Source of the DNA: a virus
Reading direction: 5' to 3' (one strand)
Length of the DNA stretch: 24,897 nt
UHGV virus genome: UHGV-0147584
Part shown: one piece after another, positions 3,001 through 21,284 of the stretch
Layout: every line of letters begins with the position of its first letter
Numbering within the stretch: the first letter of the stretch is position 1
The notes under the pieces: generated by a model
Databases searched by the model: none
Told to the model about the DNA's origin: nothing
What the model saw: only the letters and a program-made list of their open reading frames with translations
Made by a program: the position numbers and the translations under genes

Positions 3001-3854
3001 TTAAAGCTGGCGTTCGGATCACATGCACCGTTTGAATGTAGATCCATCTGGCGTACTTGTTTACGTACTTTCAGGAATGAATCAACGTTGATGTTTTCAA
3101 TTGGTACGGATAAGCCATATTTTTCATTTGTTAGGTAGTGGAAAATCTGATCCACGCCGTTAGTGCTAGCCTCAATAGCATTGGTTTCAAGGTTACGAAT
3201 CTTTAACCCGCAAACGTCTACTGCTACCTGGCTATTTGGCTGGAGAATATCAACCCCAGCAGCAAGAGATTTGTCATCACGACGTAACACAATACACATG
3301 GTCGCAATGCCGTTACCCTTGAAAGCGTCGGTCCAGTCTGAGCCTAAATGACGTTTTGCCAGCGACAAAGCGGTGTTAGGATTCTTGCCCGTGCGGAACT
3401 CGACTTCTAATACTTTACGATATTCTTCTTTAATGTTGCCCTTATCGAGAATACCATCACGGATCGTCATGTTCTTACCAACAAGAACATTTTTGTTATC
3501 GATAAACAGTGCTTTGTAATGGTCGATTTCACCCTCGGCTACAGAGAAGATTTGCACTAGCTTATTGTTTTCTTGCTTAGAAACTGCTTTGTAAACACAG
3601 TTTGTGCCAGTGCGGGTAGTACCGAAAACGACTGGTATCACCGCTTTCGGATCGTTTGATGTTCCTAGTGTCACCGCATTATCTGGGCTTTGTACTTTAG
3701 GTGTTTTTGGTGCGCCTACAGTGGAAGCGATCAAGGTCATTGCACCAGCAGCCATACCGATAGCGACTGCGGTCATAACAGAAAATGTTGCAGCAGCAGC
3801 CATCCCAGCAGACGCACCAGCAATAACCGCGCCTACTAATATTTCAAATCCCAT
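78..3854 (-). CDS. central tail fibre / host specificity protein (lambda gpJ-like)
   Basis: 1258-aa ORF. The C-terminal ~150 aa carry motifs I recognise from the lambda gpJ receptor-binding end (DDHxFDRQIV, VDMPAG.G.V.LTF, VMV.KK). Start ATG overlaps the upstream stop (TAATG). Stop TAA. Confidence 0.85.
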   Translation of the reverse strand: MGFEILVGAVIAGASAGMAAAATFSVMTAVAIGMAAGAMTLIASTVGAPKTPKVQSPDNAVTLGTSNDPKAVIPVVFGTTRTGTNCVYKAVSKQENNKLVQIFSVAEGEIDHYKALFIDNKNVLVGKNMTIRDGILDKGNIKEEYRKVLEVEFRTGKNPNTALSLAKRHLGSDWTDAFKGNGIATMCIVLRRDDKSLAAGVDILQPNSQVAVDVCGLKIRNLETNAIEASTNGVDQIFHYLTNEKYGLSVPIENINVDSFLKVRKQVRQMDLHSNGACDPNASFKENLTNLMQTFGGVMFESFGRITLKLDAPDIVKHTFNEDNIMMGKVSLKTGGTNGYFNTINAMYQEPSIDYSEQMLRYPADAENDATVRADGRIIAKDVEYRFVKSKDQIDKLASIERNKSRITQVISFMTTDAFTAEVWDVISVTYDELKLNNSLWRITAIDRSIDSGIAGMMTITATEYNSQVYTDLNYAANPDNRPSGLPDSMTVQKPTNFRIKATGETIYGKNVTLTWDAPEDFNRYGFQIDYRVSGSPNWIKLGQTSQQIFSVNALAKDRSYDYRVCAFGIIARSDWVELVNQNPTVTYELPTPVIRIKNQGSTPGTFEGNDLIIEWENQQQLDVEINGETNKFSDLFEAYIIKVTNKAGKSIQYRTRDPESWTYTLDMNQFNGLSRQLTVEVSAKGYNNSESAPARLVAINPQHKPMKGFSARGGFNTAFVSWADDVEHDYAGSIIQYATDNTFSDARAVSTNSVSHTSFDLADGDYYIRGAHYDIFGMDDAVWSEPYFMQMKSTISWDDQDKEALEDLIGLQDRLDETIADAIAQAGANADAKIDAMHKQITTETGQTVQASANTLKSLIATSEQASSTKIDQVKAELKGDIKSEVSASATTLKQAIATSEAASASKIDQVRVEMDGKIAGVNQEADVKIDALKGTINSKYNLAVNADGRVAGIHMSATNDPAQPTRIIFNADKIAVAPQNGSEVCPFGIEGNKVYLDNAMIRNAAIGTAQINDAAITTAKIGNAAINSAKIQDGAITNAKIVNGAIDNAKIGNYIQSSNWNGSTGWHINKNGSATFMNATVKGNITADSGTLNNVTINSSCVIKGMLEATQVKGDFVKVIGRKFPHRDVNVDNGYAGYPQGTVTVRVEDDHKFDRQIVIPAVSFGGLRAREGSNNNTFYDTCRLIVRKNGSELYNRAYGGNTGLYSGVIDMPAGKGAVTLTFEVQSSAINNWTPSTWISDLTVMVTKKATTGIPVS
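690..865 (-). repeat. about six tandem 30-bp coding repeats inside the J-like gene
   Basis: Visible 30-nt periodicity (e.g. gtcctgaatcttcgcgctgttaattgcagc / atcattaatctgggctgtaccaattgcagc) encoding a 10-aa repeat NAAINSAKIQ / DGAITNAKIV / NGAIDNAKIG. Confidence 0.7.
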
Positions 3855-4273
3855 TATTCACCCCCGAATCTATAAACTTGTTCATAGTCAATGTCTGAAA
3901 CAGGAATGGTCATCCAGATACCATCTTCTTCAACGAGGCCATAACCGGAATAATGAGGAACTACGGAATAATAATTACGGTTTCCTAATTTGTGGGCTGT
4001 GACCAGTAAGTCGCCGTCCTGTAAATCATCAGTGACTAATTTGAAATGTTTCTTAATTGGTTGAAGGATATTTGAATACCCGCTTAATTCTTTGCAGATT
4101 TTCAAACCTTCTTCTTTAGTTGAATATTTTTTATAAAGAGAATTATATAGGTCAGTACCAGCGAGAATATCGATGATCTTACATGCAATGAGATTGCAAT
4201 CATTCTCGCCTTGAACGAACTCCTGACCTATTAAAGAATTGATGTAATCGGTGATAAGCCTAGTTTTTAGCAT
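3854..4273 (-). CDS. tail-tip protein, NlpC/P60-like (lambda gpK position)
   Basis: ORF-track frame 3854..4429, but its 5-prime part overlaps the upstream gene. An internal ATG at 4271-4273 is preceded by GGAGGT at good spacing. A Cys-containing motif ENDCNLIACKII resembles the NlpC/P60 catalytic region. Stop TAA. Confidence 0.55.
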   Translation of the reverse strand: MLKTRLITDYINSLIGQEFVQGENDCNLIACKIIDILAGTDLYNSLYKKYSTKEEGLKICKELSGYSNILQPIKKHFKLVTDDLQDGDLLVTAHKLGNRNYYSVVPHYSGYGLVEEDGIWMTIPVSDIDYEQVYRFGGE

Positions 4274-4319
4274 GTTGAATACCTCCATGCTGTTATTTAC
4301 TAGGCTTAGGGAGAAGGGA

Positions 4320-4973
4320 TTATTTCTTCGATGAATGCCACTTGCTTTCGCTATTCCACTTCCCGGCACGGGAGAAGAATAGATCGTTCTCGTTTCCAAC
4401 ATAGGATCGGTGGATACCATCGGAGGCATGACTACGGGCGTTTTTATCTAGAACTTCCCAGATACTATTAAGCTGAAATTCTGATTCGTTTTTACACTCA
4501 TCATCTTCATGTTCGATGTTAATCCCGATGGAATCGACTACCCCACGGAAAACAGGGTAAGTGGTTTCAACCTTGCCCGTGTTGGGATTCAGGAAAACCA
4601 TCTCGATTTTCACATCAGATTTATCGAATTGCTTGTTACGAATGAGAGTAATGTATTCTTCGCGAACGTTAGAAACAGTTACGTTGATCCCGTTGTTGTT
4701 GATCTCCTTCTCTTCGGTATTCGATGAGATTTGAAGAAAGTCACCCGTTGCGAGATATGTAAAACCGTTATAGTCCAAATCGAAATACCCATCTGTAAGC
4801 CGTAGAACGTCCCCTGACGCGGTAATCACTTCGATAATGTGAAACATCGATCCAGTGGAAAAAAGTTGCGGTAGAGTCAATCTAGACACATTCTGACCTG
4901 TCTGGTCGTTGTATACCTCGATGAAGTCCAGATTAGTGCATAGTTTGCTGAATGATTCCTGAATAGTTGCCAT
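4320..4973 (-). CDS. minor tail protein (lambda gpL position)
   Basis: 217-aa ORF between the M-like and K-like genes; start ATG overlaps the upstream stop (TAATG). Assignment is by position and size only. Confidence 0.5.
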   Translation of the reverse strand: MATIQESFSKLCTNLDFIEVYNDQTGQNVSRLTLPQLFSTGSMFHIIEVITASGDVLRLTDGYFDLDYNGFTYLATGDFLQISSNTEEKEINNNGINVTVSNVREEYITLIRNKQFDKSDVKIEMVFLNPNTGKVETTYPVFRGVVDSIGINIEHEDDECKNESEFQLNSIWEVLDKNARSHASDGIHRSYVGNENDLFFSRAGKWNSESKWHSSKK

Positions 4974-7942: not shown

Positions 7943-8317
7943 TTACCCCAATTGTCCGCTCTTGAGCTTTTGTAATAATGAAGCGTCGAAAAAACTATCA
8001 ACCAAAGCAGCGTTACGTTCTTCCTCTTTCTTACGAGCAATTTCTTTTATTTCTTCTTGCGTTTTAAATTGCTTGTCGTCCTTAATCATTCGGAATTGGT
8101 TAACATTGATTTTATTCAACCATTCACGAGTCATGTTAGGAGATGTAACGTGCATGTAATACATCGACTGTGCATGTCGCGCATCTTGAAACAGGGGGCT
8201 TTGTGGTTCAAGATATGTATCGAATATATGCAACGCCCAAAATAGCGTAATTGGCATATTATCCATCTCATCTTTACTCAAGCCCCGACGCATCATTTGC
8301 CGAAAATAAAAATTCAA
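7943..8317 (-). CDS. T-like portion of the tail assembly chaperone GT fusion (reached by -1 frameshift from G)
   Basis: This frame has no ATG start (ORF track begins at TTG) and is open upstream to 8341, overlapping the 3-prime end of the G-like ORF in the -1 frame; immediately precedes the tape measure gene. Confidence 0.6.
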   Translation of the reverse strand: MNFYFRQMMRRGLSKDEMDNMPITLFWALHIFDTYLEPQSPLFQDARHAQSMYYMHVTSPNMTREWLNKINVNQFRMIKDDKQFKTQEEIKEIARKKEEERNAALVDSFFDASLLQKLKSGQLG

Positions 8318-8325
8318 GAGCGGGT

Positions 8326-8634
8326 TTACTTTACCTCGTTTTCAATTACCGCCGCATCTTTCATCAATGATGCTTGAGCAACTAAGCCGATTAATTCGCT
8401 GCGGACGCTAGTATACAATGCCTTAACTTGTTCAATAGATTCAAATACTGGCTTACCGTCTTCATCTTCAATACAACGAAGAATAGAGCGTTCATCACGG
8501 TCTTTTTTATCGGTATTGAAAACATGTTCATTAAATTCTTGTACCGACATAGGGCGAGCATAGAACGTAAATCCGCCGAGGGTTAAAGATTCACGTTTCG
8601 GAGAAAGAGCTTTTAACATTTCATTCAGATTCAT
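8326..8634 (-). CDS. tail assembly chaperone (lambda gpG-like)
   Basis: 102-aa acidic protein directly upstream of the T-like frame and tape measure; classic G-T-TMP arrangement. Stop TAA. Confidence 0.65.
   Translation of the reverse strand: MNLNEMLKALSPKRESLTLGGFTFYARPMSVQEFNEHVFNTDKKDRDERSILRCIEDEDGKPVFESIEQVKALYTSVRSELIGLVAQASLMKDAAVIENEVK
8329..8335 (-). other. candidate -1 slippery heptamer GGUAAAG for G to GT frameshifting
   Basis: mRNA reads G GUA AAG UAA at the last two codons of G. The -1 frame (GGU AAA GUA...) is the open T frame. Lambda uses G GGA AAG at the equivalent place (recalled). Confidence 0.45.
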
Positions 8635-8676: not shown

Positions 8677-9183
8677 TTAAGAGATTTTCAAAGTCTGCTT
8701 AGTGCCAGTCTTCTTAATGTTATTGAGGAAAGCTGCCGGAGGATTGCTTAACCAATAGTAATGAAAACCACTTTGCATACTGTTATAAGGAACAGTGACA
8801 GCAGCACCACCCAAATTAACGGTTATATTCCCCGCTCTACCGTTCTGGAGATATACAGCCATAGTAGGAGTACCACCATTGAATTGACCAACGATAACGC
8901 CAATCAGACGGCCTACGCCCACGTTTTCGGGGTTCTCCATAGTTCCTTTACTGCGCATATCAGTTACAGGATAGTTTGAAGCAGTTACACCCCAATTATT
9001 ACCCAATGACGTAGACCACGCAGCAGTAGCTACAACCGTATCCATACCACGACCAGCCATTGCCGACATATTACGCGGAGCCGGAACTTTTAAAGCTGTT
9101 AATGCTTCTTTCATCCATCGCTTACCCGTCACTGATACAGCCGATGACCCGATCCAGCCGGGAACTTTAACGACATTTGCCAT
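8677..9183 (-). CDS. hypothetical virion-associated protein (Gly/Ala/Thr-rich)
   Basis: 168-aa ORF, ATG 9181-9183 preceded by GGAG; sits between a terminator and the G chaperone gene. No family recognised. Confidence 0.45.
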   Translation of the reverse strand: MANVVKVPGWIGSSAVSVTGKRWMKEALTALKVPAPRNMSAMAGRGMDTVVATAAWSTSLGNNWGVTASNYPVTDMRSKGTMENPENVGVGRLIGVIVGQFNGGTPTMAVYLQNGRAGNITVNLGGAAVTVPYNSMQSGFHYYWLSNPPAAFLNNIKKTGTKQTLKIS

Positions 9184-9198
9184 TTTGATTACTCCAAT

Positions 9199-9226
9199 AA
9201 AAAAGCCCCACCATTAAGGCAGGGCT
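9199..9226 (-). terminator. intrinsic terminator after the 158-aa gene and its extension
   Basis: Minus-strand RNA: GC-rich hairpin GCCCUGCC..GGUGGGGC followed by UUUUUU. Nearly identical to the terminator at 15123-15150. Confidence 0.7.
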
Positions 9227-9231
9227 TATAA

Positions 9232-9357
9232 TTAATCTTTAGCCTTGCGGCTTCGTTTAGCTGTGGCTTTCGCCGTAACTTCTTCTACTTCTGGAATCAC
9301 TACCGCTTCATGTTCCGGCTGTGGTTCAGGTTCCGGTAAAGGAAGTTCTTCGTTAGT
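9232..9357 (-). other. in-frame 41-codon extension behind the UGA stop of the 158-aa gene (candidate readthrough segment)
   Basis: Hand translation from 9357 down, in frame with the upstream ORF: TNEELPLPEPEPQPEHEAVVIPEVEEVTAKATAKRSRKAKD, then TAA at 9232-9234. Confidence 0.5.
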
Positions 9358-9834
9358 TCATCCGGCAGTGTTGAAGATTTCCTGTTTCAGCGGAGCACCA
9401 TCAACAGCAAAGGTAAATTCTTTAGTTACCACTTCTTCATCGCCACCGTTCATAGCAACTTTAGAAATAAAGCCGTTGAAAGCGGTGCGAATACCAGTCT
9501 GTTTTGCTGCGTCAACATAGTATTCAATTTTAATCTGAATACGGGTTCCATCTTCGGCAGCCTTAATAAGACGCTCATGCACGGTATCCCCGGGAATATA
9601 ATTAACGGTCAGAGTCAGATCAGGAACGTTCAGTTTACCTACCAGCTTGCGGTTATACTGAGAAGAGAAGGATTTAACTTCTACAGTACCGCGCTCGATA
9701 CCAGTTTCAGGGAAACCAGCACACTCTTTAATTTCTTCATAGCTTTCATGATCGAGAGCGGTGTTAGTGGTATCGGCGTGATAGAACATACTTACCAGAC
9801 CACCAGTAAAAATATCTTTGAATTGTTGAGACAT
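9358..9834 (-). CDS. putative tail tube-fold protein (candidate major tail protein)
   Basis: 158-aa ORF with SD AAGGGG. A segment (GKLNVPDLTLTVNYIPGD...LIKAAEDGT...IEY) is paralogous to the 277-aa protein at 13552-14385. Ends in TGA followed by an in-frame extension and terminator. Confidence 0.5.
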   Translation of the reverse strand: MSQQFKDIFTGGLVSMFYHADTTNTALDHESYEEIKECAGFPETGIERGTVEVKSFSSQYNRKLVGKLNVPDLTLTVNYIPGDTVHERLIKAAEDGTRIQIKIEYYVDAAKQTGIRTAFNGFISKVAMNGGDEEVVTKEFTFAVDGAPLKQEIFNTAG

Positions 9835-9890: not shown

Positions 9891-12800
9891 TTATTTAGTT
9901 GCTTTCAGTTCGGCAATCTCTTTATGTAATGCTTCGATCTGCGCTTTATATTTGGCGTCCATTTCCTGCATAGCTTTGATGATTAAAGCATTGACAGCAG
10001 AGTTAGAAATAGTCTTGATTGCTTCTGGATGTTCTGGATCTTCGGTAGATTGAATACCTACTGCTTCCGGCAATACTTTTTCCAGATCCTGAGCAATAAT
10101 ACCTACTTCGCGTTTAATTACCGTGTCATCAGAAAGAGATTTAACTTTATCGTAGGTGTATACTTTCAGGGAGTTTACTTTCTCTAATGCACCGTCCTGT
10201 AATTCTTCCTTGTTAATTTTCAGACGAGAGTCAGAGCGAATGTAAACATCGTTAAAGCTACCGTTACGACCTGCCGTCATGTCACCGGATGCGTTAAAGT
10301 CAAAGACGGCATCATGAACATGGAGACGAACAAGAGCGTTACCGATAGTACCGCTAGGAACGTGTACACCCATTGCGGCGATATGATATTTACCTTGATG
10401 GGTTGCTTTCCAGATGTTATGAGCGGAATCGGTTGATTGCTGGCAGTCGACCTGAATACCGGAAGCACGATCACGCCAGCTAGCCCAACTACCACCAGCA
10501 ACGCTACCACGAATAAGACCATTACCGCCACCGGATACAGTGCCCGTTTCAAGGTGAATCATCTTACCGCCGAATTTCCAGACTTCGGCTTGTTTCTCAC
10601 CGCGCATACGCATAACACCAGCATCATCGCAGTACAACAGACCCAACTCTAAGCCGTTTGGATCTCTAAACCATAAATGCTTGTTACCAGTGCGCTTAAA
10701 CTCAATATCAGCACCATTCAGGGTGATATTGCCTCCAGTGTGGATTGCTTTAGGCTTAACAGTACCGTTAATAGCAAACTCGATTAATTCAGTACCAGGA
10801 CCGCCAGCACGTTGGGTATACCAGTGCCAACCGCTTTCATCAGCACATTCAAACACTTGTTTACGAGCATCAGCGCCCCATGCACGAATATTAAACGTAG
10901 AAGTTGCAGTACCTTTACCCCAGCGAATTTGTCCAGCAGCTTCTAAATCACCGAAGAATTTAGTTTTAATCGCACCAGTTGCTAAAGTACGTTCAGTGGT
11001 GAAGTGTGCACCTTTGCTATCGTCAAGCTGTAAGATATTATCACGAGCGTTATTGCTATCGCCCCAATGGTTAAACCGGAAGTAGTCGCGAGAATTTAAT
11101 CGACCAGCATCAAAGGTTAACATTCCTTTACCGACGTAAATATCACCAGCAAATCGAGCAGCACGGCTATCTCGTTCGAGAACTAATGCACCCTCGTTAC
11201 CATCACCACCTAAAGTAACTTTACCAGTCGTCAAATCGTAAATGAATGGTCGGTTGCCGTTCCAGCCACCAAATTTATCATTTTCGGCAGTTGAAAGAAG
11301 ATAAACTTTACCACCATCATTACGCCAGAATGCACCGTAGTTACCGTAAATCATACGGAATGCATCACTGTTAGCAGCTACATATTGTCCGTTTGAGTAA
11401 ACAATTTTTGTTTTACCAGTGGATAATGAAACTTGACCGTTCTCATCCAGTCTTACAGAGTTATTACCTTCCGTTAATTCATTTACTAACTGTACAGTGT
11501 TAGTAGTACCATCACCATAACCTAGATAACCCTGACGACGATTAGCACCAGAACGATAATCAAAGAATTCGATATAGTTACTTTGCCCGTCGCGGCGTTC
11601 CATTCTAATAGCGTTATTACCCTTAACAAAAAGGCGGTTTACAGTAACACCATTAAAATCAATTTTTAATTGATCCGCTGTATCAGTAACACCAGTAGCT
11701 AAACGATAGACACTACCTTCAACAACTTCATGCCAAATTGTTTCGGCTGATTTGCTACGGAATTTACGAAGATATTTTTTATTTGTATCAGTTGAGTTAT
11801 TCAGACTGATAATATCATATGTTCCTTGACCGTTATTATCGAACATCAACGTTCCGGCTTTGTTTTCGGTGTTGAACATCGTAATAACACGAGCATCAGT
11901 AACACCAACAGAAGGTTTAACGAGAGTTAATTCAGGAACATCATGTACTGTTAACGAAACATCACTAGTTTTACCATATTCGACAATAACGTTATCGGTA
12001 TAACGACCGTAGTTTACGTAAATGTCGTAGTTATCACCGGAAGTATTAACCGCAAATACTTGATGGACATTCAAAGAATTTCGACGATAAGCAGCAATAC
12101 TAACGCCTTTCGGGTTATTGTTACCGGAACGGATAACAATTTCTACAAAATCAACCTGATCATAGGAGTTAACGTTATAGCCGTTACCACCGAAGATACG
12201 AAGCATTACCATTCGACCATTCTGTGGGATCGTGGCGGTTGCAATCTTGAAGTATCCACGAGAAGCATCACCAGACGGAACAGACATTTTCACGTTCTTG
12301 ATGAACATCTGGTCAACTGCGGCCTTGCTATACACACCCAATTCATCAGGAGTCGGCTTATCACCTTCATGGTACATGCGATAGCTGAATCTCTTGTTAC
12401 CGTCCTTATCAAAGCCATAGGTTTTAACCTGAGATGAGCTAGACCCATAATGGAACTCAAAGCCGCGACCGTGTGCTTTACCGCCAGAATGAGGAATGTT
12501 AAGGATTAAGTTACCCCAGCCTTCGGCATTGTTCGGACGAAACGCACCAAAATAATCAAGGTTACGAGCACCAGCATCATCAAAATAGTTAGCGGTCTTG
12601 CTTAACAGATAGCCATGATGATAAGTGTTGGTATTCTTCTTGATGTAAAGAGCATCGTTGCTACCTTCAATACCATCAATTCGACGGTTAGCGGCTGCAA
12701 TCGCTGCATCTGCATCGGTCTTGTTTTTGTCTACCTTCGCGTTAATGGCGGTATGATTGCTATTAACAGTGTTGGTTAAGTTGGTGATCTTCGTATCAGC

Positions 12801-13478
12801 GTCTTTCTTGTTATTCGCTACCGTAGTTTCAATGGCTGATTTGTTAGCCGCAACGGTACTCGTTAAGCTGGAGATCTTAGAATCAGCATCAGACTTGTTA
12901 GCTGTAACGGTTTTGGTCATATTGCTAACATTGGTGTTGGTGGCATCAACACGGCTATTGATCGCGGTGTTATTGTCATTAACCGTAGTGGTTAAAGCTG
13001 AGATTTTATTGTCCGCGTCTCGTTTGTTATTCGCTACGGTAGTTTCAATAGCTGATTTGTTTGCCGCAACAGTGTTAGTTAAAGTGGTATGTTTGCTGTC
13101 AGCGTCGGTTTTATTTGCCGTAACTGTCTGGGTTAAGTTACTAACATTGGTGTTAGTAGCATCAATGCGCTTATTGGTTGCTGTATCTTTCGTGTTAATA
13201 GTGTTATTCAGTTCAGATTTAGCGGTAGCCAGAGCGTTAGCAGCTTCGGTTTTATTTGCCGCAATAACACGATCCGTGTTGGTTTTGTTTGTGTCTACTT
13301 TAGTGTTAAGTTCAGCGTGTTTTTCTGGGGAAACGCTGATTTGAACTACTGCGTTATTTTTGTCTTTCGTGTAAATTACGTGGTCGGCAAGGTTAATAGC
13401 TACCTCACCCTGTGCCAGTTGTTCCGGCGTTGGCTTTTTACCAGCCGTCTGTGTGCGTTTAAATTGGATTGATTGCAT
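9891..13478 (-). CDS. side / L-shaped tail fibre with C-terminal intramolecular chaperone (peptidase S74-like) domain
   Basis: 1195-aa ORF. Conserved fibre N-terminus (MQSIQFKRTQTAGKKPTPEQLAQGEVAINLADHVIYTKD), tandem shaft repeats, and a C-terminal ~114 aa beginning RSDSRLK that resembles the autocleaving chaperone of phage T5 pb1 / K1F endosialidase. Stop TAA. Confidence 0.8.
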   Translation of the reverse strand: MQSIQFKRTQTAGKKPTPEQLAQGEVAINLADHVIYTKDKNNAVVQISVSPEKHAELNTKVDTNKTNTDRVIAANKTEAANALATAKSELNNTINTKDTATNKRIDATNTNVSNLTQTVTANKTDADSKHTTLTNTVAANKSAIETTVANNKRDADNKISALTTTVNDNNTAINSRVDATNTNVSNMTKTVTANKSDADSKISSLTSTVAANKSAIETTVANNKKDADTKITNLTNTVNSNHTAINAKVDKNKTDADAAIAAANRRIDGIEGSNDALYIKKNTNTYHHGYLLSKTANYFDDAGARNLDYFGAFRPNNAEGWGNLILNIPHSGGKAHGRGFEFHYGSSSSQVKTYGFDKDGNKRFSYRMYHEGDKPTPDELGVYSKAAVDQMFIKNVKMSVPSGDASRGYFKIATATIPQNGRMVMLRIFGGNGYNVNSYDQVDFVEIVIRSGNNNPKGVSIAAYRRNSLNVHQVFAVNTSGDNYDIYVNYGRYTDNVIVEYGKTSDVSLTVHDVPELTLVKPSVGVTDARVITMFNTENKAGTLMFDNNGQGTYDIISLNNSTDTNKKYLRKFRSKSAETIWHEVVEGSVYRLATGVTDTADQLKIDFNGVTVNRLFVKGNNAIRMERRDGQSNYIEFFDYRSGANRRQGYLGYGDGTTNTVQLVNELTEGNNSVRLDENGQVSLSTGKTKIVYSNGQYVAANSDAFRMIYGNYGAFWRNDGGKVYLLSTAENDKFGGWNGNRPFIYDLTTGKVTLGGDGNEGALVLERDSRAARFAGDIYVGKGMLTFDAGRLNSRDYFRFNHWGDSNNARDNILQLDDSKGAHFTTERTLATGAIKTKFFGDLEAAGQIRWGKGTATSTFNIRAWGADARKQVFECADESGWHWYTQRAGGPGTELIEFAINGTVKPKAIHTGGNITLNGADIEFKRTGNKHLWFRDPNGLELGLLYCDDAGVMRMRGEKQAEVWKFGGKMIHLETGTVSGGGNGLIRGSVAGGSWASWRDRASGIQVDCQQSTDSAHNIWKATHQGKYHIAAMGVHVPSGTIGNALVRLHVHDAVFDFNASGDMTAGRNGSFNDVYIRSDSRLKINKEELQDGALEKVNSLKVYTYDKVKSLSDDTVIKREVGIIAQDLEKVLPEAVGIQSTEDPEHPEAIKTISNSAVNALIIKAMQEMDAKYKAQIEALHKEIAELKATK
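12735..13170 (-). repeat. two tandem ~216-bp (72-aa) repeats in the fibre shaft
   Basis: Protein repeat RIDATNTNVSNLTQTVTANKTDADSKHTTLTNTVAANKSAIETTVANNKRDADNKISALTTTV versus RVDATNTNVSNMTKTVTANKSDADSKISSLTSTVAANKSAIETTVANNKKDADTKITNLTNTV; DNA copies are near-identical over long stretches. Confidence 0.8.
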
Positions 13479-13551: not shown

Positions 13552-14385
13552 TCAGTATTCCCCGAAGTCGATTCGGTCTGTCTTAGCAACCGCATTAATT
13601 TCGGCTGGCGTAGGCTTCTCATTTGTTGTATAGACTTTAATCCATTCAGATTTTCCGTTGTCCTGAATATTTCGTACCCGCAAACGTGGAGCACCGGAAG
13701 TATTACAAGTTAATTGCCATGCGCCATGCTCATTAGCTTGAAGATGAATTAACGATGTATCAGCACCATAAGGATTAGTGCTAGCCGTTCCTTTGTAGGT
13801 TACGAAGCGGTTTCCTGTCAGAGATTCACTATCAATAGGACCACTGAAAGGATTTACACCAGCGCCCAGACCAAAATCACCCTGACGTAAGATACGGCCT
13901 TCGGTAGCAATACCCCTTGCAAGAATCCCGCCATCTGGTTCTAGTTTGAATTCCATAGTTACAGCTTTGTTATCACCACCACGAGTTTTATGGCTAGTGA
14001 CATAAGCATCATAGATGACATAGTAACCAGTGTTAGCAGCACTATAGCCAGAGTTAACGACATAGAACATTCTAAAGCGTAAAGGTGTTTTATCCTCTAC
14101 GGCTTTCATCAACATTGCTTGGTGTTCATCGTCAAGAACACGGTTTACTGTGAGCGTAGTCGGTTCAAGTTTGCGATAGCCAGCCAGCTTACCAGTCGCA
14201 TCATGATCATACTCTTCGTAAGTCTCGATCTCGGTTGATTCTGTTAGCGTAGGAAAGGCTGCGATGTTCTCCATACCACTAAAGCTAGGATCGAAAAAGT
14301 CGACCTGATTGTCTAGCTGGTTAGAGATCGACACTTCAACATGCGATCCCGTAAAAATATCTAAGTTATCATGCGTAATATTCAT
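13552..14385 (-). CDS. tube-fold tail protein (candidate major tail protein, lambda gpV position)
   Basis: 277-aa ORF with SD AAGGGGTAAT. About 34% identity over an ungapped 41-residue stretch with the 158-aa protein (TLTVN..D....L.KA.ED.T......Y). Ends TGA, then 3 sense codons and TAA. Confidence 0.5.
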   Translation of the reverse strand: MNITHDNLDIFTGSHVEVSISNQLDNQVDFFDPSFSGMENIAAFPTLTESTEIETYEEYDHDATGKLAGYRKLEPTTLTVNRVLDDEHQAMLMKAVEDKTPLRFRMFYVVNSGYSAANTGYYVIYDAYVTSHKTRGGDNKAVTMEFKLEPDGGILARGIATEGRILRQGDFGLGAGVNPFSGPIDSESLTGNRFVTYKGTASTNPYGADTSLIHLQANEHGAWQLTCNTSGAPRLRVRNIQDNGKSEWIKVYTTNEKPTPAEINAVAKTDRIDFGEY

Positions 14386-14394
14386 TATTACCCC

Positions 14395-14796
14395 TTAAAA
14401 ACGCGCTAGATAAGAAAATTTAAGGCTAAGTGTCCCAACGATACCCCCATCACTAGAATCATCGTCATAATCGGTATTAGAAGCGACTGGAGTTATATCT
14501 GAAATGGAGAAGCCCAAATCTTTAAAACGTGGGTTATCTGGCTGAATCTGGATTATCTGGCAAATACCCTCATGAATTTTGGTTTCATGAATCTGAGAAT
14601 ATAATTGCATTTCGATAACGCATTCAGCTTGCATTGCATTACCACCACGGACCCTAGTGTAAGTCTCATTCATTCCGGTAATCCAACACACCACGTCATC
14701 GCTAAAACCAGTTTGAGTTTGTTCTACGTTTAAAGCCAGACCTAGATCTTGTTCGATAATATCCTGTAAAGCACGTTTAATCTTAAGACGTGGCAT
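14395..14796 (-). CDS. neck / tail-completion protein (hypothetical)
   Basis: ORF frame extends to 14823, but the ATG at 14794-14796 lies 4 nt after the upstream stop (coupled start). Position corresponds to lambda Z/U. Confidence 0.45.
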   Translation of the reverse strand: MPRLKIKRALQDIIEQDLGLALNVEQTQTGFSDDVVCWITGMNETYTRVRGGNAMQAECVIEMQLYSQIHETKIHEGICQIIQIQPDNPRFKDLGFSISDITPVASNTDYDDDSSDGGIVGTLSLKFSYLARF

Positions 14797-14800
14797 ATTA

Positions 14801-15091
14801 TTAACGGTAGCGAGCATGAGCACCCCCTGCTAAAGTGATAAAGCAATCACTGGTATTGTCACCATTGCGCTTAATGTATTGAACTTTGAAACGCTGATTT
14901 TCTACAATGACAATATCACCTTGCTTTAAATCTCCCTCACGACAGAATAAGAATTCTGATTCTGTCCATACCCCTTGCTCGTCGGTAGTGGTAATTTCAT
15001 GGTAAGCACGAATTGATTTACCACCTTCCACGACAAAAACAGGAGCACTTCGGAACATTCTTGATAATTGTGATTCGGTTAATTTGAACAT
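14801..15091 (-). CDS. head-tail joining / head completion protein (hypothetical)
   Basis: 96-aa ORF immediately after the capsid gene terminator, SD AAGGGGG; size and position match the FII-like head completion slot. Confidence 0.45.
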   Translation of the reverse strand: MFKLTESQLSRMFRSAPVFVVEGGKSIRAYHEITTTDEQGVWTESEFLFCREGDLKQGDIVIVENQRFKVQYIKRNGDNTSDCFITLAGGAHARYR

Positions 15092-15122
15092 AGTTACCCC
15101 CTTTTATGGAGTATTTACATAC

Positions 15123-15150
15123 AAAAAAGCCCCACCGTTAGGCAGGGCTA
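15123..15150 (-). terminator. intrinsic terminator after the capsid gene and its extension
   Basis: Minus-strand RNA: AGCCCUGCCUAACGGUGGGGC hairpin followed by UUUUUUGUAUGU. Confidence 0.7.
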
Positions 15151-15154
15151 ATTA

Positions 15155-15241
15155 TTATTTTGCTTTCGGTGGACGTCCCACCTTTTTAGCTGTGGCTTTC
15201 GCCGTAACTACCGGAATTTCTTCCGGCAATTCTTCGTTATT
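15155..15241 (-). other. in-frame 28-codon extension behind the UGA stop of the capsid gene (candidate readthrough segment)
   Basis: Hand translation from 15241 down, same frame as the capsid ORF: NNEELPEEIPVVTAKATAKKVGRPPKAK, then TAA at 15155-15157. Confidence 0.5.
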
Positions 15242-17242
15242 TCATTCAGCGGAGATGTGAAGAACTTTCAGAGCTTCCGGCTGTGCTACAACGTAGTCCA
15301 AATCTACAAAGATACGAGGCACTACCGCACCACGATCCCTATATGTAGTTAGATCCATGTCGAGTTCCAGACCTCCCCACTCACCGATAGTAATACCGGA
15401 GAAGTCACCCAGAACGATGTGGTCTGCCGGGATAACGCCAGAAGTAACTACTTCGTAACCAGCCAGTTTGCCGTTTTCGATGATATAACCGGAAACGCCG
15501 TTATCTTTCAGGGTAGATTCCAGTTCAGCAGCAGTTGCACCGCTCATCGCAAACTTGATCGCCTGAGCAGGAACGCCAGCGTCGGTCAGTGCTGCAATTT
15601 CTTTCAGGAAGTCTTTGTAAGAGAAAGCAGCTTTCTTGGTAACGCGGCTAGCGTCTACCAGTTGCTTAACCAGACCAGCCGGACCACGGTCGTTAGCTTT
15701 ATCAGACAGAATCAGTTGTTCCAGTTTGATGCGAACAGCTTTGTTAATGTGATCAGTGATCAGGGAAGCGATGCCGGGTACGGTTTTCAGCGACTGACGG
15801 CTGATCGGGTTGCCACCAGCAAAAGTTTTCGGAGACAGTTTCACGTTCGCAAATTCAGCTTTGCTTTCCGGTGCAGCACCGTTTTCATCAACGAAGCCGA
15901 AAGCGTCAACGCTGGATTTAGTCATTTTTGGAATAGCGGTCGGGGAGTTCAAGCCACTGTAAACAGTCACACCCAGACGACCCAGAACAGATTCCGGCAT
16001 CAGCATTTCGATGTAGGATTCAGTCATCAGTTTTTCGTCAGTGATAGCGGTCAGGTCGGCTTTGGTGTTACCAGCAGAAGCAGCACGCATAGCAGCAGCC
16101 GGAACGAATACAGAGCCACCGCGAGCAGCACGACCACGCTGCATTGCAGCACCAGCAGCCATAGCGGAATATTCAGCTTCGTTAGCACCCAGAGCAGCAC
16201 CATCTACCAGAGAGCGAATTACGTTGTTCAGGTCAAAAGTTTTTTCCATTTTAGAGTCCTTAATTTGTTCGTTATTACGTTGAGCATTGACGAGATTATT
16301 TAGTGCCTTAGTGCGGAATGCTTCCGGCGTCATGTCTTTAATTGCCAATGCGCGTTTCAATTCTTCGTCGTCAATATTTAGTTCCCGCGCGATTGCTCGG
16401 ATTTCTTCTTCGTCTTCTTCGGAACGTTCAGCCACTTCTTCGGTTTTTTCTTCTTCAACCGGAGCGGCTTCACGTTCTTCTTTTACTTCTTCTTCCCGAA
16501 CAGTTGAACTATCATCATCAACACTTTCAGGATGTTTAGCGTCTTTTCCGTCTTCGAGATTTTCATCTTCTTTATTCTCTTCAACTTGGCGCTCTTGAGT
16601 TTCTTCAACTTTCGGTTCTTTATTTTCTTCTACCGGAGTTTCTTCAACCTGAGCGGGTTCTTGTTCTTCTTTGATTTCTTCGATTTGTTCTTTAGTCATA
16701 TCGCGTTTAGCCCCCAAATTAACTGTGATAGTATTTAGAGAGCGATTTAAACCGACCGAATCATCGGCAGGGACCGTGACCCACGAAATTTCGTGAGGAA
16801 TCCATTTAGAAACAATGAGTTGCGATTTAGCGTAGTCGATGTGATATTCTTTAATGTCATAACCGACAGAAATTTTTTCCATCGTACCTTCAATGACTTT
16901 ATTACGAATATCATTAGCCAAAGTCCCATGCTTAGAGAATTTAACCAGAGCACGGCCTACGTTATCCGCATCGATTCGAGCGTTACAAACGACACCAATG
17001 TGATTATCGAAATTATGATTGAACAGCAACGGAGCGTTATTATTCAGACGAGACAGATCAACCGCTTCCGGTGTATGTACCAGAATTTCATCTAATACCA
17101 CCATTTCTTGATTTTGCTCATCCCAAAATTGGCGCTGATAAGGCTGTGTACTTGAGAAAGCAATTTCAAACTCGTATTGATCGTTATGCCCTTCGTTAAT
17201 AACTCCACCGTAACCGTTAAGATCGCGGCGAAATTTAAGCAT
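15242..17242 (-). CDS. prohead protease - acidic scaffold - major capsid protein (HK97 fold) encoded as one ORF
   Basis: 666 aa. N-terminal ~180 aa carry HK97-family prohead protease signatures (LLFNHNFDNHIG; KISVGY...HEISWVTVPADDSVG). Residues ~180-330 are an extremely acidic low-complexity linker. The C-terminal ~330 aa look like an HK97-fold capsid protein. SD AAGGTGA. Stop TGA. Confidence 0.75.
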   Translation of the reverse strand: MLKFRRDLNGYGGVINEGHNDQYEFEIAFSSTQPYQRQFWDEQNQEMVVLDEILVHTPEAVDLSRLNNNAPLLFNHNFDNHIGVVCNARIDADNVGRALVKFSKHGTLANDIRNKVIEGTMEKISVGYDIKEYHIDYAKSQLIVSKWIPHEISWVTVPADDSVGLNRSLNTITVNLGAKRDMTKEQIEEIKEEQEPAQVEETPVEENKEPKVEETQERQVEENKEDENLEDGKDAKHPESVDDDSSTVREEEVKEEREAAPVEEEKTEEVAERSEEDEEEIRAIARELNIDDEELKRALAIKDMTPEAFRTKALNNLVNAQRNNEQIKDSKMEKTFDLNNVIRSLVDGAALGANEAEYSAMAAGAAMQRGRAARGGSVFVPAAAMRAASAGNTKADLTAITDEKLMTESYIEMLMPESVLGRLGVTVYSGLNSPTAIPKMTKSSVDAFGFVDENGAAPESKAEFANVKLSPKTFAGGNPISRQSLKTVPGIASLITDHINKAVRIKLEQLILSDKANDRGPAGLVKQLVDASRVTKKAAFSYKDFLKEIAALTDAGVPAQAIKFAMSGATAAELESTLKDNGVSGYIIENGKLAGYEVVTSGVIPADHIVLGDFSGITIGEWGGLELDMDLTTYRDRGAVVPRIFVDLDYVVAQPEALKVLHISAE

Positions 17243-17287: not shown

Positions 17288-18799
17288 TTAGGGATCGGTT
17301 TGAGAAGGGTTATCCTTGCTCTCACCATCAACGATAATATTTAGTGCGCTCTTTTCGGCTTGAATCTCTGAGAATACTTTTTCAGGATCATCACCACGTT
17401 CAAGAATAACAGCAGTACGTGATTTAAGACCATTTTGAATTAAAGCAATCTCGGCGTTTACGTCTTTAATAGGATCGACGGATTCAAAACGCGGACGAAT
17501 AATAGTAGTGTTATCGATAATATGAGGAATTGCAGTAATACGAATCGGAACAATACCACGCGCGGAATAATGGCGTAGATATGCTTCGAAAATTGGCAAT
17601 ACCACTGTTTCAATTAATTTGTTTTGCAGTGCTTTAATGCGGTTACGCTGAGTTAATTCACCAAAACGTGCGGCTGAGTAGTTGATCTGTGAACAATCTC
17701 CTGTTAAGCCCTGTTTGAACACGCCTAAGCCCATTGATACGCTAGTGAACATCGCATCATTGAAGCTGTTAAAGTCATCGCCATTTTGCGATGATTGAAT
17801 GCTCTTGATTGTTGCCCCTTCCGGCAATTCCTGAATAGTACCCGGTGCAAAGTCCTGTACTACTTCCGGCGCTTGATATTGTTCATCCTCTTCACCAGTA
17901 TCAAAATCGTCACCAGAATCTTTAGGACGTTCGATAAAGCCCATAGAACTAGCCGCAATACGTTTCTGGACGATCGCGGTTTCGCGGAACGCTTCTTGAT
18001 GCGCAATATCCTTAATCACTGGCAGGAAGTCAGTCACACCACGTAAACTTTCCGCGCACAGTGGCTGGTAGTAGTGGCACACCTGAGAAGCATCTACGCG
18101 ATAATTTTCGCCAGTGTAGGTCTGAGTCAGTAGATTGATTTTTCTAAACCAGTATGCTACAGGGCGCATTGTGTCTACGTCATACTCAATCCCCTGATAG
18201 ATCGCACGTTCTTTGCTTATTTCACGACTAAGCGACCAGTCGCACCTATCAGCAGACAGAATAGAAACTTGTAACTCATTGTTCTCTTTGGTTAAAACGA
18301 TGAAGCATTCTCCACCCTGAACACGTTCAGATTCTGCCATTGCCAGCATTTCACGGAAGTTAAAGCGACCGTTGCGAGAGAAGCGTTTAGCACTCTGCGC
18401 CCACTTCCAGAAAGCATTCTCGATCTGCTTATTCAGTGCGGTGTCAAGTTTGCCATTTGATTTAACGATTGATGGTTTCGGATCAAGCCCCGTACCAACA
18501 ACTTGGTCAACGATATACTGCTTGTATCGCTTACCTACAGCATTGTTTATAGCCAGAGTACGACCCTGATCATAAAGGCGCTTACCGTTCGATTTGAGAG
18601 CCTTATTGAAGGTTCCTGTAATGGTGTCTTGTTGAAGCTGTCCATCAATGCGATCACCGACTAAGCCCAAAGAACGCTTAGACAAATCTTTCTGGAATTT
18701 TTCTACTTGTTTGTCGATAAAGATTTTTTGTTGTTGCTGGCGGTGATTAGTTTTAACTGGAGTTTCTACCGCCTTTTTGCGTCGAAAAAGATTAAACAT
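17288..18799 (-). CDS. portal protein (lambda gpB-like position)
   Basis: 503-aa ORF between the gpW-position gene and the capsid gene; SD AAGGGGTAAATC; size and position typical of a portal. Stop TAA. Confidence 0.8.
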   Translation of the reverse strand: MFNLFRRKKAVETPVKTNHRQQQQKIFIDKQVEKFQKDLSKRSLGLVGDRIDGQLQQDTITGTFNKALKSNGKRLYDQGRTLAINNAVGKRYKQYIVDQVVGTGLDPKPSIVKSNGKLDTALNKQIENAFWKWAQSAKRFSRNGRFNFREMLAMAESERVQGGECFIVLTKENNELQVSILSADRCDWSLSREISKERAIYQGIEYDVDTMRPVAYWFRKINLLTQTYTGENYRVDASQVCHYYQPLCAESLRGVTDFLPVIKDIAHQEAFRETAIVQKRIAASSMGFIERPKDSGDDFDTGEEDEQYQAPEVVQDFAPGTIQELPEGATIKSIQSSQNGDDFNSFNDAMFTSVSMGLGVFKQGLTGDCSQINYSAARFGELTQRNRIKALQNKLIETVVLPIFEAYLRHYSARGIVPIRITAIPHIIDNTTIIRPRFESVDPIKDVNAEIALIQNGLKSRTAVILERGDDPEKVFSEIQAEKSALNIIVDGESKDNPSQTDP

Positions 18800-19379: not shown

Positions 19380-21284
19380 TTAGAACGATGTTACCCAGCT
19401 ACGGCCTCTATTTGGGCGTCTGGCGATGTTTTTACGTTGTGGTCGTGTGATTGGCTTATTTTCTTCGATTTGCTCGTCAGATTGCGATTTAGGAGCTTTT
19501 ACGGGTTCTTCGACAACACGGTTTAAGCTGTCTTTCATTGCGATGAGTTTATCCCATGACATTTTTGAAAGGACGTAGCGAGAAGCCGCTGTAGCATACA
19601 CGGCGCAGTCGAGCGCCTCGTTCCTAACGCCTGGGTTCTTTACCCATCTCACGCCAGTAGTAGTACGCTTGACAGATTCACTTAAAAGCTGATCGAGATA
19701 ATCATCAGGAACGGTGTCTGATATTTCTAAGCCAATATGAGGATTATCTTTCAGGTTCCTAGCCAACATTTCACGAAATGCAGTTTTACCCACATTAACA
19801 CCCAACATAAGCAATTCATGACCACCTGTGCGGGTAGGTTTAACCGGAATGATCGGAGCGTTACCAGCAGAACTACCTTTGATAGCGTGTAAGTTCTTCC
19901 ACTTGCCGCAAATACGGTATCCAGCTTGAGTGAATCGACCGTTCGATGTATCAAGGAAGCTGGCGAGCATAGGAACACGATCACCCGATACAGTAGTAAA
20001 TCTGGTTTTATGGAAGTTGATTAATCTATCCCATACAGGGGATTCATATCGTTCACAGTTATGATCGTAAAAGCTGCGGTGATCCAGAATATAAATCTTA
20101 TCCTTTGCCACGCCCATGATTGTAGTTTCTGCGCGATCTAATTGCTGGTCAGTACCCGCACACAAGAAAATCACGTCATCAGGGATATTCTCGATAGAAA
20201 CATCTGTTTTGAGTTGTTCCAGTTCATTTGCTTCTACTGCCGTGTCCTGATCGTCGTATACCTTGCCTAACACGGTGTTATAAAATGATTGTAAATCAAA
20301 GGATTGCCACGCATGACTAAAATCAACCACACAAGCGCGGATCGTGCTGAAAGGTGAATACAGACGGCTGATCCAGAATCCTGCTACTTCACTTTCACGG
20401 GTTGCTCTCCACTCGCCTTGTGCTACTGCCCTGATTCGTTCCCCTTCGGTCCATGCGTTCTTACAGTGGGGGCAAATATAACGAGCGGTATCAGGATCGG
20501 GTAAGTTCTTACCATCGATGTTACGCCATTCAAACTGTACGTTTTCCCACTCGATCACCTGGTGTCTACCGCAATGAGGACACGGAACAAAAAACATACG
20601 CATATCACTTGATAACCATTGCTGGTTAATGCTTCCGAGCTTACTGGTCGGGGTACTGGATACGACTAATCGGCCTTCATCGCCAAAGGTAGTTAAACGG
20701 TTAGCAGCCAGTGCCACCGGATCACCTTCTTCTGAGGCTGTAGCAGCATCGATTTCGTCAAGCAATCCAACCTTTGCGGTCTTACCGCGTAGGGTTGATG
20801 GACTAGTAAGCGATACCATATAAAGGAAGTGGTTTGATTTGAGCTGGAGCTGATTGTTGTTATTAACAGAATTGCGATCATTCTTGTCTGTAACCACGTC
20901 TTTTAATGCATCACATGCTTCGATAGACGGTCGGATCTTACCCGCGAGATATTGAGACATTTCTTTAGCGGTTGATTGTCCGATAATCATATTGCATGGA
21001 TCGTTAGCCATCTGGTTAAACAGGATGCCGTTCAAGATGGTAGTCTTTCCGATCTGCGCACTGGTCATCAGAACATACTTTTTCTTGTTCTCAAGGAAAG
21101 GAGCATCAATCATACCTTTCTGGAATGACAGCAATTTAACTTTATCCCCAGCTTGAGGACCATCTACCAGCACCATATTCGCTTCGCACCATTCAGAAGG
21201 AAGGAGCTTAGGCGGTGGCGTAATATATTTGGCTGCATTTTTGAGAATCTTTTTTAATTTGGCCTTATTTGAAATCAGTTTCAT
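19380..21284 (-). CDS. terminase large subunit, lambda gpA family
   Basis: 634-aa ORF. Walker A-like TSAQIGKTT, paired CPHCG...CPHC motifs, [11 protein letters not shown] and [11 protein letters not shown] segments closely resembling lambda gpA as recalled. SD GAGGGT. Stop TAA. Confidence 0.9.

Follow-up and report, generated by a model that had tools for sequence, protein, structure and literature searches.

A T-even gp37-type side fibre with a putative tube-fold anchor and a predicted gp38-like adhesin on a lambda-like siphovirus tail

The virus genome UHGV-0147584, whose 24,897 nucleotides were analysed as a whole and are referred to here as the window, corresponds to a siphovirus structural module, and all of its genes lie on the minus strand, as do all of the features located below. 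The open reading frame at positions 9891-13478 starts with ATG and encodes a tail fibre of 1195 residues. We suggest, with a probability of about 0.6, that this protein belongs to a three-protein side fibre, consisting of an anchor, a gp37-like fibre and a gp38-like adhesin, which is carried on a lambda-like siphovirus tail and is homologous to the distal half of the T-even long tail fibre. What is directly seen are homologies, motifs, gene order and their conservation. The putative anchor, 'tube277', is a tail-tube paralogue of 277 residues with a fibre-stub domain (13552-14385), and the short gp38-type tail-fibre adhesin has 168 residues (8677-9183). The gene for the 158-residue major tail tube protein (9358-9834) lies between the fibre and adhesin genes.

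The fibre is related to T-even gp37 over nearly its entire length. Residues 290-1192 are 81% identical to residues 71-970 of gp37 from the Krischvirus PHB13, over 904 amino acids, and 72% identical to RB49 gp37; at the DNA level, positions 9960-12560 are about 80% identical to gene 37 of the RB49-like T-even myoviruses (Krischvirus). The best-matching families are all of the gp37 type, with phrog_1699 ('long tail fiber protein distal subunit') at E 1e-141. An earlier note on this DNA had described a conserved fibre N-terminus, and this can now be named: residues 3-48 match the N-terminus of phrog_1699, the family of gp37 distal long tail fibres (E 5e-21), and residues 1-51 are 43-50% identical to the gp37 N-termini of RB49, PHB13 and PEi20. 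The body identities and the gp37-type N-terminus together imply that the fibre is a full-length gp37 homologue with a 238-residue shaft inserted behind the N-terminal domain. For the remainder of the window, outside the fibre, megablast found no match among phage records.

From its N-terminus, the fibre consists of a joint domain that resembles gp37 N-termini (residues 1-51, MQSIQFKRT...GEVAINLADHVIYTKD; 13326-13478), the repeat shaft (residues 52-289; 12612-13325), the gp37-homologous body and tip (residues 290-1081; 10236-12611) and an intramolecular chaperone of the Peptidase_S74 type (residues 1082-1195; 9894-10235). The shaft has no counterpart in Krischvirus gp37. Inside it are the two tandem 72-residue repeats that had been noticed previously, repeat 1 at residues 104-175 (12954-13169) and repeat 2 at residues 176-247 (12738-12953). 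They were recognized as self-matches, the offset of 72 being by far the strongest, and they are identical at 56 of 72 amino acids and 154 of 216 nucleotides. Their DNA identity is just 71%, and Tandem Repeats Finder, applied to the DNA, gave no repeats. When repeat number was compared among the relatives, as the earlier note had proposed, two full repeats were present in only about half of the family's fibres. Within the body, residues 671-747 (11238-11468) form a Gp34_trimer-like domain (Pfam Gp34_trimer, E 1.5e-25), and the T4 gp34 structure 4uxe matches the fibre in a PDB search (E 9e-16). A similarity between gp34 and gp37 is known, and both matches fit it.

The fibre had previously been labelled T5-type, and this part of the earlier description is not supported as it stands. 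In a comparison made with a 169-residue tip-plus-chaperone query, T5-like phages match the chaperone region only, that is, the last 150 or so residues, at 31-40% identity, with matches that start at query residue 1, 18 or 35; gp37 of phage T2 is 38% identical to the same query. PDB sequence searches with the fibre found the S16 gp37 fragment and no match to the solved C-terminal region of T5 pb1. The term 'T5-type' thus holds only in the sense that both fibres carry an S74 chaperone. An L-shaped fibre of the pb1 type would sit on a T5-like collar and, after S74 cleavage, bind polysaccharide with its own distal domain and without a separate adhesin. The S74 domain and the related chaperones in T5-like phages agree with such an arrangement, as does the variability of the distal 250 residues, which is expected of a receptor-binding region, and as does the presence of a tube paralogue, like p140 in T5 (PMC10038345). 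We consider it improbable, however, because the whole protein is a gp37 homologue (72-81%), pb1 itself was not matched in the PDB searches, and a Gp38_N protein that co-occurs with this fibre type is encoded two genes away. In addition, nothing like a p132 collar gene stood out among the tail genes of the window, where no search was aimed specifically at p132, and the receptor-binding protein of RB49, the phage with the closest characterised gp37, is gp38 (PMC9569957).

The C-terminal chaperone of about 114 residues suspected in the earlier note was recovered by the profile search that it had called for: Pfam Peptidase_S74 (PF13884) matches residues 1082-1140 with an E-value of 9e-14 and 51.9 bits, compared to a cut-off of 22. 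Cleavage is predicted between NDVYIR and SDSRLK, i.e., between R1081 and S1082, with S1082 and K1087 as the Ser-Lys dyad of an SDxRxK motif, and it would release residues 1082-1195, or 114 amino acids. The S-D-x-x-x-K core is kept in the aligned relatives, in RB49, in PEi20 (as SDITLK) and in P13374, and the chaperone aligns to the chaperone part of S16 gp37 (PDB 6f45_A, E 0.005). We predict from these similarities that the fibre undergoes S74 autoproteolysis. The cassettes of the prophage family to which the window belongs are of types A and B, as described below, and a comparison of 16 type-A fibres shows that the mature protein ends in a near-invariant stretch of 17 residues, GD[FM][TSQ]A[GS]RNG[SN]FNDVYIR. 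These residues stay constant even where the preceding tip is completely different, and they look as a docking site would. In RB49, gp37 has a self-cleaving C-terminal chaperone; once it is gone, one gp38 monomer per fibre attaches and recognises the receptor (PMC9569957). Likewise, the receptor-binding tip of RB49, T2 and S16 after chaperone removal is gp38 and not the fibre itself (PMC9569957).

The protein predicted to dock here is the 168-residue one. Its N-terminal attachment domain (residues 1-48; 9040-9183) matches Pfam Gp38_N (PF21721) at E 4e-15 and 55.9 bits, against a cut-off of 25, and the protein matches phrog_1121, 'tail fiber adhesin', at E 1e-35. A PDB search with the single sequence gave nothing; a family profile was needed to reach S16 gp38, of which it matches residues 1-46 in the solved gp37-gp38 complex (6f45_D, E 5e-11). 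Residues 9-48 are 55% identical to the 261-residue gp38 adhesin of the Krischvirus FL37. Every one of the 19 type-A relatives with DNA extending to this position encodes the protein, at 90-98% identity, and none of the six type-B relatives does. The Prokaryotic Genome Annotation Pipeline names its homologue 'receptor recognizing protein Gp38' and the fibre homologue 'tail fiber domain-containing protein'.

The combination of an S74 fibre and a short gp38-like protein is also found in the Shiga toxin (Stx) phage P13374 and in the T4-like PEi20; short gp38 proteins with PF21721 only (156-183 residues) follow S74-ending fibres in PEi20 and in short-tailed Stx phages. Among full-length phage homologues of the adhesin, the Stx-phage version is the closest (45% identity). 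In the Stx phages P13374, 75/02 Stx and phi191, the gp38-like protein directly follows an S74 fibre with the motif ...NGSFNDV.IRSD, whereas their fibres have a collagen-repeat shaft, are part of a podovirus tail and show no other relationship to gp37. The FL37 gp38 gene is about 55 kb from gene 37 (cf. PMC12032242), which indicates that adjacency is not required and that the intervening gene in the window is no obstacle to pairing. An open reading frame of 79 residues after gp37 in RB49 and FL37 was considered as a mini-gp38 and turned out to be unrelated on checking. No gp38-like gene was found in RB49 between positions 100 and 148 kb, and a scan of genome contigs with the adhesin yielded no confirmed relative.

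At the other end of the fibre, the 277-residue protein is composed of an N-terminal domain with the tail-tube fold, as judged by AlphaFold2 and Foldseek (residues 1-161; 13903-14385), and a C-terminal domain that is a tail-fibre knob module (residues 162-277; 13555-13902) and closes with the gp36-like joint motif IDFGEY (13555-13572). Residues 10-154 match phrog_158, 'major tail protein' (E 1.8e-9), as does the 158-residue tube protein (E 9.5e-21), and the two proteins are 29% identical (E 3e-14). The earlier placement of the fibre between two tube-fold genes is therefore correct. The suggestion that went with it, of an insertion, does not survive in the sense of an arbitrary one, since one member of the tube-fold pair probably encodes the anchor of the fibre. 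A chance insertion of the fibre between duplicated tube genes was rejected because the anchor-fibre-tube order is conserved across genera. The model of the N-terminal domain has a high predicted local distance difference test score (pLDDT) over residues 13-161, and its best Foldseek match in the PDB is the lambda tube protein gpV (8k36_A, E 4e-7), followed by other siphophage tube proteins. The protein matches no Pfam family. Its homologues occur in Escherichia coli, Salmonella, Shigella, Providencia, Edwardsiella and Proteus and, where named at all, are called 'hypothetical protein' or 'Phage tail protein'.

A phmmer search with the C-terminal domain against 1.8e9 representative proteins produced 87 matches, 22 of them below 1e-10, and these include internal modules of large fibres. 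About 18 of the matches carry the domain at residues ~155-275, in proteins with total lengths of 278-1209 residues. Among 17 sequences read, 15 have a tube-domain-like start and a [VILF]D[FLAE]G... end; P0156 and P0177 are the exceptions. In the homologues, the length of fibre that separates the tube domain from this end motif ranges from 0 to about 950 residues. By these matches, the C-terminal 115 residues of the anchor are a genuine tail-fibre module.

The last 72 residues of the anchor align to the extreme C-terminus of RB49 gp36 (31% identity, E 7e-5). The anchor ends in ...KVYTTNEKPTPAEINAVAKTDRIDFGEY and RB49 gp36 in ...QLYHEGNKPTPADVGAVPLNAVIDFGTF, both of which fit ...KPTPA..AV....IDFG[ET][YF], and PEi20 gp36 ends in IIDFGEF. 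The IDFGE[YF] ending is conserved in 17 anchor homologues, all of which keep D273 and G275. In phage T4, the binding partner of the gp37 N-terminal region is trimeric gp36 (PMC3004832). The succession of a ...DFG.. C-terminus and, directly after it, a gene that starts with ..[FI][KR]F[KR]R...GE.xIN.. is found in RB49, PHB13, FL37, PEi20, DCP80, a metagenomic contig and this prophage family. A Proteus mirabilis prophage has the DFG-end/FKR-start junction twice in a row: its anchor ends in ...EEIDFGEF, next comes a 198-residue shaft protein (MKSIQFKR......MDFGTF) and then a gp37-like fibre that starts with MAELARIQFKR.... The fibre gene of the window corresponds to the Proteus shaft gene and gp37-like fibre gene fused into one. 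The same segment boundary is thus a gene boundary in the Proteus prophage and internal to one open reading frame here, which is consistent with a swappable joint.

From this homology and synteny, we infer a conserved plug-and-socket joint with the 277-residue protein as fibre anchor. A broader version of the idea is that a tube paralogue with a gp36-type joint represents a third siphovirus side-fibre mounting, in addition to the Stf collar and p132/p140, and that the joint, in which a C-terminal ...[ILVM]DFG[TE][FY] would meet an N-terminal ..IQFKR..GE.xINL.D.., would serve universally as plug and socket, so that entire fibre segments could be chained and exchanged by temperate siphoviruses and T-even myoviruses alike; in our estimate, this falls just short of an even chance. 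A literature search found no description of a tube paralogue with a gp36-type joint as side-fibre anchor. In T5, p132 forms a collar around the tube paralogue p140 (PMC10038345).

Where the anchor sits on the tail is a separate question. The composition of the fibre could be the same with the 277-residue paralogue serving as tail terminator or neck ring, in which case the fibres would be head-proximal collar fibres instead of being mounted on a ring near the tail tip. The slot after the capsid and small connector genes is the normal terminator position, and only two small genes, encoding 96 residues (weakly lambda gpW-like) and 142 residues, separate the capsid gene from the 277-residue gene. 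Distant relatives keep the same gene order, and nothing else emerged as a candidate for the terminator. We regard a neck position as a serious possibility that we would nevertheless bet somewhat against: the best sequence and fold matches of the protein are major tube proteins, and a rough estimate from residue counts makes the fibre ~90 nm long and the tail at least 120 nm, so that the tip adhesin of a neck-mounted fibre would fail to extend beyond the tail tip. Furthermore, the known siphophage side fibres, those of T5 and Ur-lambda, sit next to the distal tail protein (PMC10038345, PMC12617516). The length estimate and these precedents favour a ring next to the distal tail protein.

With such an anchor, the three-protein side fibre would work as follows. 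In or on the tail tube, the 277-residue paralogue probably assembles into a ring, with its C-terminal stub ending in the gp36-like joint (...IDFGEY). The gp37-type N-terminus of the fibre (IQFKR...GExAINL) would plug into this joint, as gp37 does into trimeric gp36 in T4, and the fibre would run on from there as repeat shaft and then gp37-like body. Presumably, the S74 domain aids trimer folding and then cuts itself off between R1081 and S1082 by means of the S1082/K1087 dyad, exposing the near-invariant end ...GRNGSFNDVYIR. One 168-residue gp38-like protein would dock on the exposed end through Gp38_N, with its beta-rich C-terminal domain facing the cell surface, and this cap would bind a conserved surface receptor. 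The fibre would thereby give fast, reversible adsorption, after which the lambda-J-like tip would engage its own receptor.

Several observations weigh against parts of this scheme. The cleavage, both attachments, the stoichiometry and the position of the anchor ring on the tail are deduced. The AlphaFold2 monomer model of the anchor's C-terminal domain is of low confidence and too poor to use, and the similarity to gp36 is weak, at 31% over 72 residues with a pairwise E-value of 7e-5 and only 0.02 for phrog_16472; part of the likeness is due to the KPTPxxIGA motif, which is common to many fibres. A hexameric tube ring must also be reconciled with trimeric fibres, for example by two fibres per ring. 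As for the adhesin, its C-terminal domain (residues 49-168; 8680-9039) is modelled as beta-rich with a pLDDT of about 90, and fold searches with this model found no resemblance to a solved structure. The protein lacks the polyglycine sandwich (PF05268) of the characterised gp38 adhesins, and the tube gene and a terminator-like hairpin separate its gene from that of the fibre. The C-terminal domain is almost invariant, while the distal 250 residues of the fibre (10236-10990) vary and freely recombine, with 47-90% identity to those of the window among loci L004-L027. The T-even pattern is a hypervariable gp38, and the family displays the reverse, the variation in the adhesin being mainly in its attachment domain. 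No covariation of adhesin N-terminal variants with fibre-tip variants was seen. The distal knobs of the fibre may add to binding, or they may vary neutrally.

The same facts, namely the invariant C-terminal domain beside a variable fibre tip, the missing PF05268 and polyglycine fold and a gene located downstream of a terminator-like hairpin, would also suit a gp38-like protein that is not the virion adhesin of this fibre. It could be an assembly factor, as T4 gp38 is, or be attached elsewhere, and the fibre tip would bind the receptor; some relatives are indeed named 'distal long tail fiber assembly catalyst' in the databases. This seems unlikely to us. The region that matches is exactly the domain by which S16 gp38 attaches to the tip of gp37, the mature fibre ends in 17 residues that show the conservation expected of a docking site, and short gp38 proteins follow S74 fibres in unrelated phages. 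The T4-type gp38 chaperones, moreover, are a different family.

The proposed three-protein fibre can be compared with three known systems. It shares with the distal long tail fibre of RB49, T2, T6 and S16 a gp37 homologous over its whole length (72-81% amino acid identity), the N-terminal joint region, the S74 chaperone, the cleavage motif and the conserved mature C-terminus, as well as a Gp38_N-domain protein and a gp36-like C-terminal end on the upstream protein. However, the particle here is that of a temperate siphovirus, with no gp34, gp35 or baseplate in the window. Neither gp34 and gp35 nor a free trimeric gp36 is encoded there, just the gp36-like C-terminal end fused to the tube paralogue. 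The 238-residue repeat shaft after the gp37 N-terminus is another difference, and the adhesin is short (168 residues), without the polyglycine sandwich and hypervariable loops, and nearly invariant in the family.

The L-shaped fibre of T5 is likewise a siphovirus side fibre with a C-terminal S74 chaperone, beside a separate central-fibre receptor-binding protein, and a duplicated tube protein takes part in anchoring it. Its sequence similarity to the fibre is confined to the chaperone (31-40%), and in contrast to p132 and p140 the tube paralogue here itself bears the fibre joint, and a separate tip adhesin is predicted; as stated above, neither a p132-like gene nor an additional one of collar size was seen among the tail genes of the window, with no search directed at p132. 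Ur-lambda has a lambda-like tail with a J central fibre and side fibres, and in its Stf the proximal shaft is a coiled coil and the distal part is a relative of T4 gp37. That T-even and temperate phages exchange parts of their fibres is classical, and Stf is one of the classical cases. Stf differs, however, in that it provides its own anchor, an N-terminal collar domain of which 12 copies surround the gpV/gpM junction (PMC12617516), and has a separate chaperone, Tfa, whereas here an intramolecular chaperone would fold the fibre and a separate tube paralogue would anchor it. Neither a Stf-type N-terminal domain nor Tfa (Caudo_TAP) was matched, in Pfam or PHROG, by the fibre or its neighbours.

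The fibre, the S74 chaperone and the gp38-type partner are thus of known kinds, and the fibre and chaperone alone are ordinary. The anchor, on the other hand, looks like an undescribed variant of side-fibre mounting. The analysis provides a concrete account of a complete myovirus receptor-binding module (joint, fibre, chaperone and adhesin) re-used on a non-contractile tail, and it assigns a role, that of tube-fold fibre anchors, to a widespread unannotated protein family of Enterobacterales prophages. If the joint is as modular as suggested, host range could be engineered by swapping segments between temperate and virulent phages, and prophage receptors could be predicted from what is known of T-even gp37 and gp38.

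The window belongs to a family of mosaic E. coli prophages, with 30 loci in IMG/VR, that is present in 55 of 5426 complete E. coli genomes and always in the chromosome. One member lies at 4.30-4.33 Mb in strain CE0007a (NZ_CP119011), with a recombinase family gene about 2.5 kb past its J-like gene, and strain ETEC4090 has another. The family retains the order anchor-fibre-tube-(adhesin), and anchor-fibre-tube is kept across genera. Identity of the fibre to that of the window ranges among relatives from 49 to 87% in the shaft, from 53 to 83% in the body and from 47 to 90% in the distal 250 residues. The three parts assort independently, which agrees with the earlier view of a recombination-prone host-range cassette. 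In the type-B cassette, the fibre is ~40% identical and still has Gp34_trimer and S74 domains, the tube protein is ~59% identical and there is no gp38-like gene; the type-B loci are L025, L026, L029, L031 (about 14350-15390), L028 and L030. Four of these six have three small open reading frames (98-111, 101 and 100 residues) between the fibre and tube genes, with no informative family match.

The closest phage record, L002, is Escherichia phage DCP80 (PQ671644), with a large terminase (TerL) that is 44-45% identical by tblastn. This 141-kb genome is filed under Straboviridae/Gaprivervirus, yet it carries a lambda-like terminase-portal-capsid-anchor-fibre-tube-J module. Both DCP80 and L063, a 246-kb metagenome contig, have an endonuclease VII gene: in the former it is found ~0.5 kb past the J-like gene, in the latter immediately upstream of the terminase. 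DCP80 and L063 may be large siphovirus genomes, or they may be mis-assembled or misclassified records.

The tube gene itself has some features of interest. The 158-residue protein reaches 27.8 bits with Pfam Phage_TTP_11, just below the cut-off of 28.4. Near-identical terminator-like hairpins (AGCCCTGCC...GGTGGGGCTTTTTT) directly follow the capsid gene (15128-15149) and the tube gene (9203-9227), an arrangement consistent with attenuators behind the two most abundant virion proteins. The hairpin after the tube gene suggests that the 158-residue protein is the abundant tube subunit and the 277-residue protein a minor component. GC-rich hairpins without a T-tract precede the start codons of the capsid, fibre and tube genes. 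The tube gene stops with TGA, which is followed by 41 in-frame stop-free codons (TNEELPLPEPEPQPEHEAVVIPEVEEVTAKATAKRSRKAKD) and then TAA (9232-9360). All 18 type-A relatives (11 distinct sequences) have the TGA stop and an extension that is open for 36, 39 or 41 codons. Indels in the extension are all multiples of three, variable sites number 4, 5 and 9 at the three codon positions, and neither of the other two frames is open; in type-B relatives, the tube gene ends with TAA and has no extension. This pattern makes the gene a candidate for programmed UGA read-through, which would yield a minor, C-terminally extended tube protein.

The lambda-J-type central fibre or tip attachment protein has 1258 residues (78-3854), and its gene is about 6 kb downstream of the fibre. 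It matches Pfam Ig_GpJ_C (PF12421, E 1.8e-33) and Phage_Tail_Tip (PF09327, E 4.6e-18), PF13550 scores 19.6 bits, under its cut-off of 23, and the lambda J C-terminal receptor-binding domain is present. As judged from these domains, it would be the second adhesin of the particle, so that the pairing of a side fibre with a lambda-J-type central fibre proposed in the earlier note is upheld.

The order of genes in the window is terminase, portal, protease-capsid fusion, two connectors, 277-residue protein, fibre, tube, 168-residue protein, tail assembly chaperones, tape measure, distal tail protein, two tip proteins and J-like protein, with the large terminase at 19380-21284, the portal at 17288-18799 and the protease-capsid fusion at 15242-17242. 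The open reading frames at 3854-4429 (DUF6950) and 4320-4973 overlap by 110 nucleotides as listed; the true DUF6950 start is probably further downstream, since RefSeq gives a shorter DUF6950 gene in a relative. The chaperone open reading frames at 8326-8634 and 7943-8317 occupy the position of a G/GT frameshift pair.

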